A stretch of DNA of 64,000 bases from Escherichia coli (GCF_003790525.1 NZ_CP033635.1); one strand, 5' to 3'; counted from the first letter of the stretch, positions 108 to 7,514 are shown. Notes: a model not told the origin generated them from the letters alone. Translations and numbers: made by a program.

Positions 108-830
108 TCACTTATTCTGCGTATGCAGCATATAGTTCACATCAACGCCGGGGCCGAGCTTAAAGGAATTAGTTATAGGGTTGTAATGCAGCCCGGTCAT
201 ATGCCGTTCTTTAAGACTGGTCTGATCCACCCAGCCCAGCAATTCTGCCGGTTTAATAAACTTCTTCACATCATGTGTACCTTTAGGCACCATGCGCAAA
301 ATATATTCAGCACCAACCACCGCCATCAGCCATGACTTGCCGTTGCGGTTGAGCGTCGAGAAAAAGACATCGCCGCCCGGTTTCACCAGTTGCGCACAGG
401 CTCTGACCACTGACTGAGGATCGGGGACGTGCTCCAGCATCTCCATGCAGGTCACCACATCATACTGCCCGGCATGTTTTGCCGCGTGCTCTTCCACGGT
501 TTCCTGCACGTAATCCACCTGAATGCCGCTTTCCAGTGCGTGCAGTTTTGCCACCTGCAATGGCTCAAAGCCCATATCCAGACCGGTCACCGTCGCACCT
601 TCGCGCGCCATACTCTCGGCCAGAATGCCGCCGCCACAACCGACATCGAGCACCTTTTTGCCAAATAAACCGCCAGCACGCTCGGCAATATAGCCCAGAC
701 GCAGCGGGTTAATACGGTGCAGCGGTTTGAACTCACCTTCCAGATCCCACCAGCGGGAGGCGACGGCTTCAAATTTAGCGATCTCTTCGTGGTCTACGTT
801 ATTGTTTTTAAGGAGATTTTCAGTGTTCAT
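108..830 (-). CDS. ubiG: Bifunctional 3-demethylubiquinone-9 3-O-methyltransferase UbiG (240 aa)
   Basis: Same length as E. coli UbiG and near-identical over residues ~11-240 as I recall it; SAM-binding motif [11 protein letters not shown]; divergent from gyrA as in K-12. Confidence 0.95.
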
Positions 831-907: not shown

Positions 908-1606
908 TTACTGTGTAGATAACGAGAGAATTTTTCGTGCGCGCTCGGTAAATCCACTACTTACGTGATGAGTAATAAAATTACAAACACCTTCAACGTT
1001 ATTATTTTTTAGCATATCTAAAATAGTCGCATGGCCACGATTTGAATTGGTGATATATTCCGTAGTGAAATCCAGTCGATAACGGATAGCAAGTAAACGT
1101 GCGGATATCAATTGGTGTGCCTGAGAGATGTATTTATTATCAGCGTATTTAACAAACACATAATGAAAATCATGATCCAGTTTAAGATAAGCCTGAGTAT
1201 CGCGCTCGGCATTAATTTTTGCTGATTTTGATAGTATACTATTTAGTTCAATGATGACATTGTTTGCATTCTTTTCCATTGCTTCACTAATTGCACCCTG
1301 CTCCAGAATTACTCGCATTTTTATGAGGTCATTAATATCTTTATCTGTTACGGAAAAAACGAATGTTCCGCTGCGTGGAATGATATTGATCAGATTTTCA
1401 TTGTGACTAAGTAAAATAAAAGCTTCACGAATAGGTGTTTTACTTACCGCCAGAATATTCGAAAGTTCATTTTCACTTATCGGTTGCCCAAGACTGAGAT
1501 CGCCATGAATTATCATATCCCTGATTTTTTCTTTGATGACCTGTGTTACGGATTTTGGTATCTCAATTGATATGTGACTTAAGTCACGTTTCGCTTTATC
1601 TCTCAT
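908..1606 (-). CDS. GntR-family (FadR/FCD-type) transcriptional regulator, 232 aa
   Basis: N-terminal winged-HTH typical of GntR (ENELSNILAVSKTPIREAF) with a C-terminal helical FCD-like domain; strongly AT-rich codon usage; no equivalent between ubiG and gyrA in K-12 as I recall. Confidence 0.7.
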   Translation of the reverse strand: MRDKAKRDLSHISIEIPKSVTQVIKEKIRDMIIHGDLSLGQPISENELSNILAVSKTPIREAFILLSHNENLINIIPRSGTFVFSVTDKDINDLIKMRVILEQGAISEAMEKNANNVIIELNSILSKSAKINAERDTQAYLKLDHDFHYVFVKYADNKYISQAHQLISARLLAIRYRLDFTTEYITNSNRGHATILDMLKNNNVEGVCNFITHHVSSGFTERARKILSLSTQ

Positions 1607-1670
1607 TCCTTTGCCCCTTATTAAGCTGCTGGTCCATTATATGTAATCATTTTATCAATGAAGGTATCTA

Positions 1671-1843: not shown

Positions 1844-3172
1844 ATGAGCAGTCCTCAGAAAGATTTGTATGAAGCCATTTCTATTGTGAAAAGGAAGATT
1901 ATTCCGTTAGCATTTATTCTGTATTTTTTTAACTATATGGATCGTGTTAACATCGGATTTGCCGCTTTACGCATGAATGAATCCCTTGGTATTACACCAG
2001 AGGATTTTGCTAATATATCTTCAATATTTTTTGTGTCCTATTTGATTTTTCAAATTCCGAGCAGTATTGGATTGCAAAAGTTAGGTGCAAGAAAATGGAT
2101 TAGCGCCATTATTGTTGGTTGGGGAACAGTAACAACGTTAATTTTCTTTGCCAAAGACACCCAGCATATATTGCTCGCTCGGGTCTTTTTGGGAATATTT
2201 GAAGCGGGGTTTTTCCCTGGCATGGTTTACTACCTGGCATGTTGGTTCCCGGCGCGTGAACGTGGAAAAGTGAATAGCTTTTTTATGTTATCAATCGCAG
2301 TTGCATCTGTGCTGGCGGCACCAATGTCTGGTTGGATTATTGAACATATGAATACCGGTAACTATGAAGGATGGCGCTGGCTTTTTGCTATTGAAGGCAT
2401 TCCTACGGTGTTATTGGGGGCGCTGACCTTTTATTTACTGCCAGATCGTCCGGAAAAAGCCCGCTGGCTTACACCATCGCAAGTCACCGCATTGGTCGAT
2501 AAACTTAATTCTGATAACGAAAAAGCCGCAGCATTAAATAAAAATACAAATGCATCTTTTCTGTCAATCATTAAAAATCCAGTATTACTACAACTCTCAT
2601 TTGCTTATATGTTTATTCAGGCAGCGGCGTTGGCGGCAAATTACTGGTTACCGGGGTTGGTTAAAGGATTTTCATCGGATTTCACAGATACCGATGTCGG
2701 TTTGATTATGAGTATTCCGTTTATTTTCGCGATGTTCAGTATGCCATTATGGGGATGGCATTCCGATAAAAAGAATGAAAGGAAATGGCATGCCGCACTA
2801 CCGATGTTGGTTGCAGGTTGCGGTTTTTTAATGATCGCACTTGTACCTTCGATGACGCTGCGCATGATGGGATTAACATTATACGGTGTAGGCATTCTCA
2901 GTTATTACGGTCCGTACTGGGCTTTACCCTCAGCTTTACTTTCACCATCAGGCCTGGCAATCAGTATTGCGTTTATTAACTCTTGTTCAAGTTTGGGTGG
3001 TTTTCTGATCAATAAATCACTTGGCTATGTTTCTACACATTATGGAGCCACGGGGATATTTATTGTTGAGGCGATTCTTTGCTTTATCGCCGTAGCTATT
3101 TTGTTATCAATGAAAATTGATAATAAAAAAGATAACGCCCAGAAAGACAATGTTATTTCACATGCTAAATAA
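1844..3172 (+). CDS. MFS transporter, anion:cation symporter (ACS) family, sugar-acid permease-like (DgoT/ExuT/GudP-like), 442 aa
   Basis: About 12 predicted hydrophobic segments; N-terminal ACS-type motif NYMDRVNIGFA; AT-rich codon usage. Confidence 0.75.
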   Translation: MSSPQKDLYEAISIVKRKIIPLAFILYFFNYMDRVNIGFAALRMNESLGITPEDFANISSIFFVSYLIFQIPSSIGLQKLGARKWISAIIVGWGTVTTLIFFAKDTQHILLARVFLGIFEAGFFPGMVYYLACWFPARERGKVNSFFMLSIAVASVLAAPMSGWIIEHMNTGNYEGWRWLFAIEGIPTVLLGALTFYLLPDRPEKARWLTPSQVTALVDKLNSDNEKAAALNKNTNASFLSIIKNPVLLQLSFAYMFIQAAALAANYWLPGLVKGFSSDFTDTDVGLIMSIPFIFAMFSMPLWGWHSDKKNERKWHAALPMLVAGCGFLMIALVPSMTLRMMGLTLYGVGILSYYGPYWALPSALLSPSGLAISIAFINSCSSLGGFLINKSLGYVSTHYGATGIFIVEAILCFIAVAILLSMKIDNKKDNAQKDNVISHAK

Positions 3173-3184
3173 ATGAGGTTATTT

Positions 3185-4387
3185 ATGAAGATTACATCTG
3201 TAGAAATTTTTGACTGCGAACTCAAAAAAAGAGATCAAACTATGGCCTCTTATAATCCAGTACTTATTCGGGTTAATACCGATGCTGGAATAAGTGGTGT
3301 TGGCGAAGTAGGATTAGCCTATGGTGCAGGTGCAAAATCTGGTGTTGGTATTATCAGAGATTTAGCCCCTCTCATCATTGGTGAAGATCCGTTGAACATT
3401 GAGAAGATTTGGGAATTCCTCTTCAGGAAAACATTTTGGGGAATGGGCGGTGGTAATGTTTTTTACGCAGGTATGAGCGCTATTGATATTGCCTTATGGG
3501 ATATTAAAGGTAAATATTTAAACGTGCCGGTTTATCAACTACTGGGGGGAAAGACTAACGATAAATTGAGAACTTACGCCAGTCAGTTACAATTTGGTTG
3601 GGGCGAAAAAAGGCAAATATTAGTAACGCCTGAAGAGTATGCAGAGGCAGCGCGTGCCGCTATTGCAGAAGGTTATAATGCGATAAAAGTTGATCCGCTT
3701 GAAATCGATCTGCATGGCGGCGATTGTGTCTTTCAGAACAAAAATAGAAATTACTCTGGCTTATTACTGGCCGAACAATTAAAAATGGGCGAGGCAAGAA
3801 TTGCCGCTATGCGTGAAGCAATGGGCGACGATGCTGATATTATTGTAGAGATTCATTCTCTTCTAGGAACAAATTCAGCGATCCAGTTTGCCAAAGCAAT
3901 AGAGAAATATCGTATTTTTCTCTATGAGGAGCCAATTCATCCATTAAATTCGGATAATATGCAGAAAGTTGCCCGTTCAACATCGATTCCGATAGCAACA
4001 GGTGAGCGTTCTTATACTCGCTGGGGATATCGTGATTTACTGGAAAAACAATCAATTGCGGTAGCTCAACCTGATTTGTGTCTTTGTGGTGGCATTACAG
4101 AGGGAAAGAAAATTTGTGATTATGCCAATATATATGACACAACCGTTCAGGTACATGTTTGTGGCGGGCCTGTTTCAACAGTAGCGGCGCTGCATATGGA
4201 AACTGCAATACCTAACTTTATTATTCATGAACATCATACCAATGCGATGAAAGCATGTATTCGGGAACTTTGTACTTACGATTATCAACCCGAGAATGGC
4301 TATTATGTCGCGCCAGAGTTGCCTGGGCTTGGTCAGGAATTAAACGATGAAATCGTACAACAATATCTTGCCTATGTGATCAAATAA
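3185..4387 (+). CDS. Enolase-superfamily (mandelate racemase/muconate lactonizing enzyme-like) acid-sugar dehydratase, ~400 aa
   Basis: N-terminal capping-domain and barrel motifs typical of the MR/MLE superfamily (AIDIALWDIKGK, PVYQLLGG, later EEP and HxxE-type regions); the ATG at 3185 follows a GAGG Shine-Dalgarno; an alternative ATG at 3173 abuts the transporter stop. Confidence 0.7.
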   Translation: MKITSVEIFDCELKKRDQTMASYNPVLIRVNTDAGISGVGEVGLAYGAGAKSGVGIIRDLAPLIIGEDPLNIEKIWEFLFRKTFWGMGGGNVFYAGMSAIDIALWDIKGKYLNVPVYQLLGGKTNDKLRTYASQLQFGWGEKRQILVTPEEYAEAARAAIAEGYNAIKVDPLEIDLHGGDCVFQNKNRNYSGLLLAEQLKMGEARIAAMREAMGDDADIIVEIHSLLGTNSAIQFAKAIEKYRIFLYEEPIHPLNSDNMQKVARSTSIPIATGERSYTRWGYRDLLEKQSIAVAQPDLCLCGGITEGKKICDYANIYDTTVQVHVCGGPVSTVAALHMETAIPNFIIHEHHTNAMKACIRELCTYDYQPENGYYVAPELPGLGQELNDEIVQQYLAYVIK

Positions 4388-4414
4388 CGGCGATTTATAT
4401 ACTCTAAATAATTC

Positions 4415-4675
4415 GAGTTGCAGGAAGGCGACAAGCGAGTGACAAATTCGTCAGGAACGAATTTGCCCAGCCGCAGGCTGGCCTTCGGTGAGAGACATGG
4501 ATGTCTCTCATTAATCCCCAGGAGCTTACATAAGTAAGTGACTGGGGTGAGCGACAAATCCGCATGGAGCGGATTTGAACGCTGCTTGCAGCGGCCCCGT
4601 AAGGGGTGAGGTCCATGGATGGGCCGAATAACCCGCAGACGCAGCACATGCAACTTGAAGTATGACGAGTATAGC
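4415..4675. repeat. ERIC (enterobacterial repetitive intergenic consensus / IRU) element, long form with internal insertions
   Basis: Contains the ERIC core aatccccaggagcttacataagtaagtgactggggtgagcg and characteristic ends (gagttgcaggaaggcg ... acatgcaacttgaagtatgacgagtata); the ORFs called here (4372-4653, 4404-4649, 4619-4855) are taken as spurious. Confidence 0.8.
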
Positions 4676-4833
4676 CATTATTTCTGGTGTTTATTGAGGC
4701 ACAGGAAGCGTGTTGCGGTCTTTGTTCCTTTGTCGTTCACCGCCAGCGCGATGTGTGCTGGCGGTGGGGTAAAACGCAGTAGATCTACAGCGCCCGGAAG
4801 CCTGCATTACGTTTACCCGTCCGCAAGCGATTG

Positions 4834-4842
4834 TGTTATAAT
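4834..4842 (+). promoter_or_regulatory. Candidate gyrA promoter extended -10 element (TGtTATAAT)
   Basis: TGn + TATAAT hexamer about 45 bp upstream of the gyrA ATG. Confidence 0.5.
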
Positions 4843-4886
4843 CTCCGACCTTTGAATCCGGGATACAGTAGAGGGATAGCGGTTAG

Positions 4887-7514
4887 ATGAGCGACCTTGC
4901 GAGAGAAATTACACCGGTCAACATTGAGGAAGAGCTGAAGAGCTCCTATCTGGATTATGCGATGTCGGTCATTGTTGGCCGTGCGCTGCCGGATGTCCGA
5001 GATGGCCTGAAGCCGGTACACCGTCGCGTACTTTACGCCATGAACGTACTAGGCAATGACTGGAACAAAGCCTATAAAAAATCTGCCCGTGTCGTTGGTG
5101 ACGTAATCGGTAAATACCATCCCCATGGTGACTTGGCGGTTTATAACACGATCGTCCGTATGGCGCAGCCATTCTCGCTGCGTTACATGCTGGTAGACGG
5201 TCAGGGTAACTTCGGTTCCATCGACGGCGACTCTGCGGCGGCAATGCGTTATACGGAAATCCGTCTGGCGAAAATTGCCCATGAACTGATGGCCGATCTC
5301 GAAAAAGAGACGGTCGATTTCGTTGATAACTATGACGGCACGGAAAAAATTCCGGACGTCATGCCAACCAAAATTCCTAACCTGCTGGTGAACGGTTCTT
5401 CCGGTATCGCCGTAGGTATGGCAACCAACATCCCGCCGCACAACCTGACGGAAGTCATCAACGGTTGTCTGGCGTATATCGATGATGAAGACATCAGCAT
5501 TGAAGGGCTGATGGAACACATCCCGGGGCCGGACTTCCCGACGGCGGCAATCATTAACGGTCGTCGCGGTATTGAAGAAGCTTACCGTACCGGTCGTGGC
5601 AAGGTGTATATCCGCGCCCGTGCGGAAGTGGAAGTTGACGCCAAAACCGGGCGTGAAACCATTATCGTCCACGAAATTCCGTATCAGGTGAACAAAGCTC
5701 GCCTGATCGAAAAAATTGCGGAACTGGTAAAAGAAAAACGCGTGGAAGGTATCAGCGCGCTGCGTGACGAGTCTGACAAAGACGGTATGCGCATCGTGAT
5801 TGAAGTGAAACGCGATGCGGTCGGTGAAGTGGTGCTCAACAACCTCTATTCCCAGACCCAGTTGCAGGTTTCTTTCGGTATTAACATGGTGGCATTGCAC
5901 CATGGTCAGCCGAAGATCATGAACCTGAAAGACATCATCGCGGCGTTTGTTCGTCACCGCCGTGAAGTGGTGACCCGTCGTACTATTTTCGAACTGCGTA
6001 AAGCGCGCGATCGTGCTCATATCCTTGAAGCATTAGCCGTCGCGCTGGCAAACATTGACCCGATCATCGAACTGATCCGTCATGCGCCGACGCCTGCAGA
6101 AGCGAAAACGGCGCTGGTTGCTAATCCGTGGCAGCTGGGCAACGTTGCCGCGATGCTGGAACGAGCCGGCGACGATGCTGCGCGTCCGGAATGGCTGGAG
6201 CCAGAGTTCGGCGTGCGTGACGGTCTGTACTACCTGACCGAACAGCAAGCTCAGGCGATTCTGGATCTGCGTTTGCAGAAACTGACCGGCCTTGAGCACG
6301 AAAAACTGCTCGACGAATACAAAGAGCTGCTGGATCAGATCGCGGAACTGTTGCGTATTCTTGGTAGCGCCGATCGTCTGATGGAAGTGATCCGCGAAGA
6401 GCTGGAGCTGGTTCGTGAACAGTTCGGTGACAAACGTCGTACTGAAATCACCGCCAACAGCGCAGACATCAACCTGGAAGATCTGATCACCCAGGAAGAT
6501 GTGGTCGTGACGCTCTCTCACCAGGGCTACGTTAAATATCAGCCGCTTTCTGAATACGAAGCGCAGCGTCGTGGCGGGAAAGGTAAATCTGCCGCACGTA
6601 TTAAAGAAGAAGACTTTATCGACCGACTGCTGGTGGCGAATACCCACGACCATATTCTGTGCTTCTCCAGCCGTGGTCGCGTCTATTCGATGAAGGTTTA
6701 CCAGTTGCCAGAAGCTACTCGTGGCGCGCGCGGTCGTCCGATCGTCAACCTGCTGCCGCTGGAGCAGGACGAACGTATCACCGCGATCCTGCCGGTGACC
6801 GAGTTTGAAGAAGGCGTGAAAGTCTTCATGGCCACCGCTAACGGGACCGTGAAGAAAACCGTCCTCACCGAATTCAACCGTCTGCGTACCGCCGGTAAAG
6901 TGGCGATCAAACTGGTTGATGGCGATGAGCTGATCGGCGTTGACCTGACCAGCGGCGAAGATGAAGTAATGCTGTTCTCCGCCGAAGGTAAAGTGGTGCG
7001 CTTTAAAGAGTCTTCTGTCCGTGCGATGGGCTGCAACACCACCGGTGTTCGCGGTATTCGTTTAGGCGAAGGCGATAAAGTCGTCTCTCTGATCGTACCT
7101 CGTGGTGATGGCGCAATCCTCACCGCAACGCAGAACGGTTATGGTAAACGTACCGCAGTGGCGGAATACCCAACCAAGTCGCGTGCGACGAAAGGGGTTA
7201 TCTCCATCAAGGTTACCGAACGTAACGGTTTAGTGGTTGGCGCGGTGCAGGTAGATGACTGCGACCAGATCATGATGATCACCGATGCCGGTACGCTGGT
7301 ACGTACTCGCGTTTCAGAAATCAGCATCGTGGGCCGTAACACCCAGGGCGTGATCCTCATCCGTACTGCGGAAGATGAAAACGTAGTGGGTCTGCAACGT
7401 GTTGCTGAACCGGTTGACGAGGAAGATCTGGATACCATCGACGGCAGTGCCGCGGAAGGGGACGATGAAATCGCTCCGGAAGTGGACGTTGACGACGAGC
7501 CAGAAGAAGAATAA
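4887..7514 (+). CDS. gyrA: DNA gyrase subunit A (875 aa) carrying QRDR substitutions S83L (TTG, 5133-5135) and D87N (AAC, 5145-5147)
   Basis: Full-length match to E. coli GyrA; QRDR reads [15 protein letters not shown] where wild type is HPHGDSAVYDTIVRM; catalytic Tyr122 context AMRYTE is intact. Confidence 0.97.

Follow-up and report, generated by a model that had tools for sequence, protein, structure and literature searches.

Repeats of the ERIC/IRU (RU-1) family were reportedly described in 1990–91, by Sharples and Lloyd in 1990 and by Hulton, Higgins and Sharp in 1991. Shorter deletion forms, as well as longer forms with ~70-bp insertions at specific sites, are said to have been added in 1996–97 by Sharp and Leach, by Sharp and by Cromie and coworkers, the long ERIC forms being reportedly the subject of Sharp's 'Insertions within ERIC sequences' of 1997. 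The presence and absence of ERICs from strain to strain in E. coli is likewise said to have been covered by Wilson and Sharp in 2006. ERICs resemble the bacterial MITEs, such as Correia/NEMIS of Neisseria, RUP of the pneumococcus and YPAL/RU-2 of Yersinia, in being small and non-coding and in having terminal inverted repeats, TA-associated ends and a strain-variable presence; they differ in that copies at orthologous sites vary internally in steps of one module (0, 1, or 2), which is not typical of MITEs. To our knowledge, no parent insertion sequence or transposase has been assigned to ERIC. The copy number of ERIC in K-12 has been reported as 21–30. The 127-nt consensus sequences of the E. 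coli and Salmonella ERICs are available for comparison (Table 1a of Delihas, 2007; PMC2759123). Hairpins co-transcribed from MITEs can affect the fate of mRNA, as summarized in PMC2229807 and PMC10969869.

The window analyzed here is a stretch of 64,000 nucleotides from Escherichia coli (GCF_003790525.1, NZ_CP033635.1), and positions are counted from its first letter. Upstream of gyrA, it harbors an element that belongs to a known kind in a known variant form. The element is very probably a long-form, non-coding, and non-autonomous ERIC/IRU, which inserted once into an existing ubiG–gyrA island, changed in length in place, would form part of a 3' UTR, and is likely to be near-neutral.

Anatomy, internal modules, and predicted fold

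The element comprises 276 bp on the + strand, starting with TATACTCTAAAT and ending with GACGAGTATA (Table 1), the + strand being the orientation in which the core reads ...AAGTAAGTGACTGGGGTGAGCG. The 41-nt ERIC core was found at 4513–4553 (+) as an exact match (41/41), with a single occurrence in the 64-kb window and 0 expected from 100 shuffles. The ends form a terminal inverted repeat, in which positions 4398–4422 pair with 4649–4673 and the 25-nt arms are 80% complementary. On removal of 71 bp (4442–4512) and 78 bp (4555–4632), exactly 127 bp are left; this skeleton is identical to the Salmonella ERIC consensus at 118 of 127 positions (93%) and to the E. coli 127-nt consensus in 115 of 130 aligned columns. 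The initial annotation had recognized the ERIC core and typical termini and had described the element as roughly twice the canonical length owing to internal insertions; both descriptions are borne out by the exact core, the inverted repeat, the two modules, and the alignment to the consensus sequences (276 vs. 127 bp). The extent that it gave, 4415–4675, is corrected to 4398–4673, the element being somewhat larger. The element is thus confirmed as a long-form repeat of the ERIC/IRU (RU-1) family. In addition to the skeleton, the core, and the TATA-ended terminal inverted repeat, it shares with that family its location between genes, immediately 3' of one of them, its occurrence in many copies in a genome, and a predicted stable RNA hairpin.

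Table 1. Features of the window around the ERIC element, with the basis of each assignment.
Feature	Position	Strand	Basis
ubiG	108-830	-	RefSeq
GntR/FCD-family regulator, frameshifted pseudogene	908-1650	-	RefSeq; Pfam GntR+FCD
MFS transporter	1844-3172		RefSeq; Pfam MFS_1
Mandelate racemase/muconate lactonizing enzyme (MR/MLE) family gene, 400 aa, last of three island genes	3185..4387	+	RefSeq
Whole long-form ERIC/IRU	4398..4673	+	Core, terminal repeat, consensus alignment, allele alignment
ERIC left arm, 44 bp, TATACTCTAAATAATTCGAGTTGCAGGAAGGCGACAAGCGAGTG	4398..4441	+	Consensus alignment; pairs with right arm in predicted fold
Module 1, 71 bp, small hairpins	4442..4512	+	Missing from the 205-bp and 127-bp alleles of the locus
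ERIC central core with inverted repeat CCCCAGGAGCTTAC / GTAAGTGACTGGGG	4513..4554	+	Exact match; inverted repeat
Module 2, 78 bp, four small hairpins	4555..4632	+	In the 205-bp allele, not in the 127-bp allele
ERIC right arm, 41 bp, end = GACGAGTATA	4633..4673	+	Consensus alignment, fold
12-pair G+C-rich hairpin, CACCGCCAGCGC-gatgt-GTGCTGGCGGTG, no U tail	4738-4766	+	In all island alleles, ERIC-less included
gyrA promoter region common with K-12: GTTTACC 4811-4817, extended -10 TGtTATAAT 4834-4842	4811..4842	+	Alignments to K-12
gyrA	4887..7514	+	RefSeq

The two-insert anatomy is proven by the natural 127-bp alleles of IAI39 and CE10, in which the ERIC lies at the identical position and the window is matched in all 362 remaining aligned columns; in the same alignment, SMS-3-5 does not differ from the window at any position. 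Of 5,426 complete E. coli genomes, all but one (5,425) gave ERIC-like matches, at a median of 5–6 places per genome by megablast, and matches were also found on plasmids of Salmonella, Klebsiella, Citrobacter, and Yersinia. With the 276-bp sequence as query, at least 80% of it was present in one place in 49 of the 5,426 genomes, 31 at this locus and 18 elsewhere. Nothing essential separates the element from ERIC/IRU/RU-1; it differs in carrying both modules, a state seen in only these 49 genomes at any locus, and in a 2-nt irregularity at the empty site in place of a clean TA duplication.

The two modules repeat each other in direct orientation (76% and 82% identity in the seed matches) and contain short perfect hairpins. 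They are inserted in the same orientation, the left-half one following GAGTG and the right-half one GAGCG, and in the ERICs at panC, yehK, rpiA, yeiS, ybhM, mnmH, and the ybtP–ybtA spacer, modules are found at these two internal positions as well; the third site of three-module ERICs is in the left arm, after GCAGGA. These sites are called standard on the basis of the comparisons made here. Insertion of ~70 bp at specific sites inside the repeat, with a well-folded structure retained, is likewise a reported feature of long-form ERICs (Sharp, 1997; Cromie et al., 1997). Module 1 alone was found, 100% identical, in the ERIC downstream of panC in O157:H7, and module 2 alone, 97% identical, in the ERIC after yehK in strain S88. 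Three-module ERICs of ~340 bp are present at ybhM in RM9088 (locus L036, 2413–2754) and at mnmH in MFDS1022581 (locus L038, about 2413–2738). The ybtP–ybtA spacer of the yersiniabactin locus on the Salmonella Heidelberg IncC plasmid p3 (locus L051, 151–353) contains an ERIC with a module-2-type insert, which is 86% identical and has hairpins with compensatory changes.

Module-like sequence is rare, being present in 615 and 648 of the 5,426 genomes at ~1 copy each, and all the inspected copies lie within ERICs. When nine modules of types 1, 2, and 3 from six loci were aligned, four consensus hairpins emerged, with compensatory changes in 13 of 25 pairs. This retention of hairpins is in agreement with the claim made in the title of Cromie, Collins & Leach (1997), cited in PMC3696847. 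Identification of the modules with the 'RU-3' of Delihas was rejected, RU-3 being REP/BIME-like.

The + strand of the 276-nt form was predicted to fold at −128.5 kcal/mol (shuffled mean −81.2, z −9.6) and the − strand at −119.5 kcal/mol (shuffled mean −76.0, z −8.8), while the value for the + strand of the 127-nt allele was −52.9 kcal/mol (shuffled mean −26.3, z −7.7). In the predicted fold of the long form, both the terminal stem and the core hairpin seen with 127 nt are preserved, and the modules contribute extra side hairpins. The stable stem-loops anticipated in the initial annotation are hence predicted for either strand.

Rfam holds no ERIC family, and its scan over 4300–4950 returned sub-threshold matches only, to isrH (13.9 bits) and to RF02902 (AaHKsRNA22, 'Aggregatibacter sRNA 22'; 27.1 bits, E 0.006). 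The latter covers 4546–4666, i.e., module 2 and the right arm. The same model scored 36.5 bits (type-3 module) and 23.6 bits against the modules of the ybhM ERIC, all three scores being below the gathering score of 39.8. The hairpin/linker chain of RF02902 (..ACaaaacgC..GcguuuuGAAC.. hairpin, hairpin ..GAg.. hairpin ..GAgua) can be aligned over its full length with the ERIC modules plus flanking sequence. However, its host family is Pasteurellaceae, and the sequence here is part of a repeat, with no demonstrated sRNA gene. The alignment suggests a related repeat in Pasteurellaceae and is to be taken as a lead, not as Rfam membership. It is conceivable, though unlikely, that the 70–80-nt multi-hairpin modules are a family of their own, common to Enterobacteriaceae and Pasteurellaceae, which is added and removed at fixed ERIC sites and in one orientation by a dedicated mechanism, giving ERICs with 0, 1, 2, or 3 modules, and whose structure is functional, for example in RNA processing or in propagation of the element. 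If so, the MR/MLE–gyrA and yeiS–preT sites, where all four allele states occur on flanks that are nearly identical, would be a natural experiment for finding that mechanism.

The ubiG–gyrA island and its junctions

The RefSeq annotation was that of strain 165, which is 100% identical to the window here, as is SMS-3-5. As the initial annotation had stated, the element is positioned between an island gene, termed a dehydratase there, and gyrA; the upstream gene belongs to the MR/MLE family (Pfam MR_MLE_N, 1.2e-22; MR_MLE_C, 1.1e-58). Its stop codon, TAA, is at 4385–4387, the ERIC begins 10 nt later, and the whole interval from this stop to the gyrA start is 499 bp of non-coding DNA. In K-12, ubiG and gyrA are divergent neighbors only 146 bp apart, and the three intervening genes therefore represent a strain-specific island of ~4 kb. 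The MR/MLE gene is present in 141 of the 5,426 genomes, including those of the phylogroup-F strains IAI39, CE10, and SMS-3-5, and was found in none of the representatives of other Escherichia species (one genome per species). The closest non-E. coli relatives of the island enzyme, again with one genome per species, are in the Budviciaceae (Limnobaculum and Budvicia; 77–78% at the amino acid level). The ERIC core is absent from the loci of Budviciaceae-type relatives examined, so that a Budviciaceae-like donor did not bring the ERIC along with the island.

The GntR/FCD regulator is annotated as frameshifted in every island-bearing genome examined, with or without the ERIC, and the transporter/enzyme operon may be unregulated by this protein. 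In strain 2013C-3264, which has an ERIC-less island, yfaP and rcsC are not separated by the ato operon, and elements of the IS621 and IS3-family types are located near ubiG and glpQ; the rest of the neighborhood is collinear with the window.

On the gyrA side, identity with K-12 is continuous from TGTGTTATAAT (4832–4842) into gyrA, and there is no convincing K-12 similarity upstream of the conserved GTTTACC block. The region from this block to the extended −10 is taken, by comparison with the K-12 gyrA promoter, to be the gyrA promoter. The DNA between the ERIC end (4673) and the restart of K-12 homology (about 4811–4833) is island-specific and ~137–160 bp long; the extended −10 starts 160 nt, and the −10 hexamer 163 nt, past the ERIC end. 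The hairpin in this stretch (Table 1) may be the 3' structure of the operon. Strain A32 has a 3-bp deletion at the loop and 3' stem edge of this hairpin. Relative to K-12, the DNA preceding the gyrA −35-like block (4674–4832) has been exchanged in the island allele, as have, on the ubiG side (about 800–880), the first ~9 codons of ubiG, where no ERIC is present. Judged from these alignments, the island is a replacement with three added genes and not a mere insertion into the 146-bp spacer.

The initial annotation had described the ERIC as abutting the gyrA promoter and had suggested it as a mark of the recombination boundary of the island. The element does lie within the last 500 bp of the ~4-kb island-specific segment, as would be expected if it marked or created the junction. 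Nevertheless, island alleles that have the same genes and junctions but no ERIC have already refuted this explanation; they account for an estimated 40 of the 142 island genomes. The island-specific DNA with its conserved hairpin between the ERIC and the K-12 homology, the distance to the −10, and the ERIC-free end of the replacement at ubiG are also against it, so that it is now hardly credible for the junction and for the promoter alike. A 9-nt sequence, ACGAGTATA, in the ubiG–gyrA spacer of K-12 was considered as an ERIC end and dismissed as a coincidence; it aligns with the ubiG-proximal part of the island and has no further similarity to ERIC.

Allele states and changes in length

A flanks-only query was prepared by joining 400 bp from the left and 157 bp from the right of the ERIC, such that the span of a match gives the insert size, and 142 of the 5,426 genomes matched it. 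Four states were observed, with spans of 833 bp (flanks plus 276 bp), 762 bp (flanks plus 205 bp), 684 bp (flanks plus 127 bp), and 558–559 bp (no ERIC). Among the best matches to 4300–4900, the 276-bp form was found at the locus in 31 genomes and the 205-bp form in two (2014C-3075 and SCU-301). An evenly spaced sample of the 142 genomes led to estimates of ~65–70 with 127 bp and ~40 empty. The arms and the core are identical in the 276- and 127-bp alleles. The 205-bp allele retains module 2 only. It carries two substitutions, one of them restoring a perfect GGCCCAT/ATGGGCC hairpin; one substitution in this allele lies in the core.

The ERIC-less alleles have the flanks most diverged from the window (97.1–99.3% identical) and the same gene order and junctions. 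Since these diverged island alleles with the same junctions carry no ERIC, the ERIC entered an island already in place. The empty site reads GATTTA-AG-GCCATT and the filled one GATTTA-[TATAC...GTATA]-GCCATT, with the AG missing (window 4396–4399 and 4670–4675 compared with the empty loci L039–L041); a clean TA target duplication is not seen at this locus, which shows the 2-nt irregularity instead. Haplotypes of nine alleles were compared across 4.3 kb of left and 12 kb of right flank. The ERIC-bearing alleles were found to share one haplotype from ~2300 to ~5130 (~2.8 kb), with private singleton SNPs only, outside which the flanks are reshuffled or recombined. Over this core haplotype, the empty alleles are more diverged than the ERIC-filled alleles. 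The pattern fits a single ERIC insertion followed by length change in place. The flanking SNPs of the nine alleles, being private only, gave no polarity for the length changes.

Copies of the 276-bp form that are 98.6–98.9% identical over 276 bp were found with unrelated flanks upstream of rpiA (E2348/69) and between yeiS and preT (strain A25). At rpiA, the 276-bp form is present in the E2348/69 lineage, whereas all other genomes sampled evenly from the 5,425 that matched have an empty site; the 276-bp form was therefore inserted there as a unit. TATA occurs once in the empty rpiA site and on both sides of the insert, leaving the target duplication ambiguous (TATA). The four states of the gyrA site recur at yeiS–preT (spans of 602, 727, 805, and 876 bp), and here also the 205-bp intermediate has module 2 only. 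The length variants at yeiS–preT share locus-specific SNPs, namely a T in the left arm and, in the 276- and 205-bp forms, C and A variants in module 2. Its empty site indicates a clean TA duplication.

At the gyrA site, it would have been the 276-bp form that inserted, as the whole 276-bp unit is seen in the otherwise empty rpiA site of the E2348/69 lineage. Templated conversion, with canonical ERIC copies at other sites of the same genome as donors, may then have produced the shorter alleles. Two considerations favor conversion to the short form: a genome offers many canonical ERIC donors (21–30 reported for K-12) and usually no long one, and the indels are accompanied by substitutions adjacent to the junctions, which clean excision would not yield (GCGA-A-CGCAG vs. 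...TAAC-C-CGCAG at both loci; AGTCCCC vs. AATCCCC at yeiS). Slipped-strand deletion between short direct repeats was dropped in favor of templated conversion, since the borders, inspected by eye, have microhomology of ≤1 nt and the module-2 junction needs an extra substitution. We infer that the long form came first and was converted to the canonical form, and this order is favored. The 127-bp allele is the commoner and occurs on more backgrounds, so that the short form could equally have come first.

Gain and loss of the modules might, alternatively, be independent of ERIC–ERIC conversion, if the modules were small mobile elements nested in the ERIC with site- and orientation-specific insertion and precise loss. 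Such behavior would account for their single architecture and orientation, for the sites after GAGYG in both halves and after GCAGGA, for the existence of ERICs with 0, 1, 2, and 3 modules, and for the related Pasteurellaceae model, whose best score is just under threshold. However, modules are confined to ~1 copy in each of the 615 and 648 genomes that have them and, in the copies inspected, to ERICs, and the substitutions beside the junctions suit templated conversion better. Moreover, we know of no enzyme that goes with ERIC modules. Nested mobility is accordingly regarded as doubtful, and conversion between ERIC copies as the preferred explanation of the length changes.

Transcription, coding potential, and effect on the host

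Scanning of 4300–4950, on both strands for terminators, revealed no terminator-like or sigma-70 consensus site. The terminal stem of the ERIC is A+U-rich, and no stem with a U tract occurs in the same interval. The ERIC plausibly lies, in line with the initial annotation, in the 3' UTR of the MFS–MR/MLE operon, provided that transcription runs past the stop codon; this is likely, since the element follows the stop by 10 nt and has the same orientation as both flanking genes, with no terminator predicted. It would then be co-transcribed as a 3' UTR with a long terminal stem, from which the core and module hairpins would protrude as side branches.

Mechanical ORFs of 50–93 aa overlap the element, and the initial annotation had judged the ORFs inside it to be artefacts. 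This is supported by the absence of any Pfam match to the internal ORFs and of any CDS annotated there in RefSeq, and by the 71- and 78-bp length differences between strains, which are not multiples of three and would shift reading frames. These ORFs and the match to RF02902 are what could be adduced for a small protein or a small RNA gene encoded by the element. With a score well under the gathering threshold and no promoter- or terminator-like site found in 4300–4950, such a gene is extremely improbable, and the non-coding reading is retained.

In Yersinia, co-transcribed ERICs alter the stability of the upstream mRNA in an orientation-dependent manner, through an RNase E site (De Gregorio et al., 2005, as summarized in PMC2229807 and PMC10969869). 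The element here could thus be imagined as a selected cis-regulatory element, either a stabilizer or destabilizer in the 3' UTR or an insulator limiting read-through of the island operon into the supercoiling-sensitive gyrA promoter, with the number of modules tuning the effect. Besides the Yersinia precedent, its orientation relative to both genes without a predicted terminator between them, the very stable predicted fold, and the structure-preserving compensatory changes in the modules would agree with such a role. However, the coexistence of four length states among close relatives, here and at yeiS–preT, speaks against strong constraint, and the compensatory changes could reflect the propagation of the element itself and not a benefit to the host. 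Selection for cis-regulation is therefore considered quite unlikely. The ERIC is probably near-neutral for the host, and any effect should be small, given that, at each of two loci, close relatives differ in having an empty site or an allele of 127, 205, or 276 bp. At most, it might modulate the stability of the 3' end of the MFS–MR/MLE mRNA or read-through toward gyrA.

For annotation, the ORFs in 4398–4673 can be disregarded, and the gyrA-side junction of the island belongs near 4811–4833. The element is not a gene, not an island edge, and not a regulator shown to act on gyrA, and little hangs on it for the window itself. For typing, it is of note that strains otherwise near-identical here differ by 0, 127, 205, or 276 bp. 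In the long form, the ERIC1R primer site is interrupted by module 1, ~three nucleotides from the 3' end of the primer. Owing to the module length variants and this interruption, ERIC-PCR patterns can change with no other genomic change. For repeat biology, the four-state series at two loci and the whole-unit insertion at rpiA are clean data on how ERICs change, which probably extend the descriptions by Sharp (1997) and Wilson & Sharp (2006). Compared with the older analysis of nine genomes, modest additions may be the recurrence of this series at both sites in a set of 5,426 genomes, the insertion of the 276-bp form as a whole, the three-module copies, and the near-threshold link to the Aggregatibacter Rfam model.

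Downstream of the element, the gyrA codons 83 and 87 (window 5133–5147) encode Leu83 and Asn87, the residues in K-12 being Ser83 and Asp87 (HPHGDSAVYD). S83L and D87N in gyrA are the classic substitutions of fluoroquinolone resistance.
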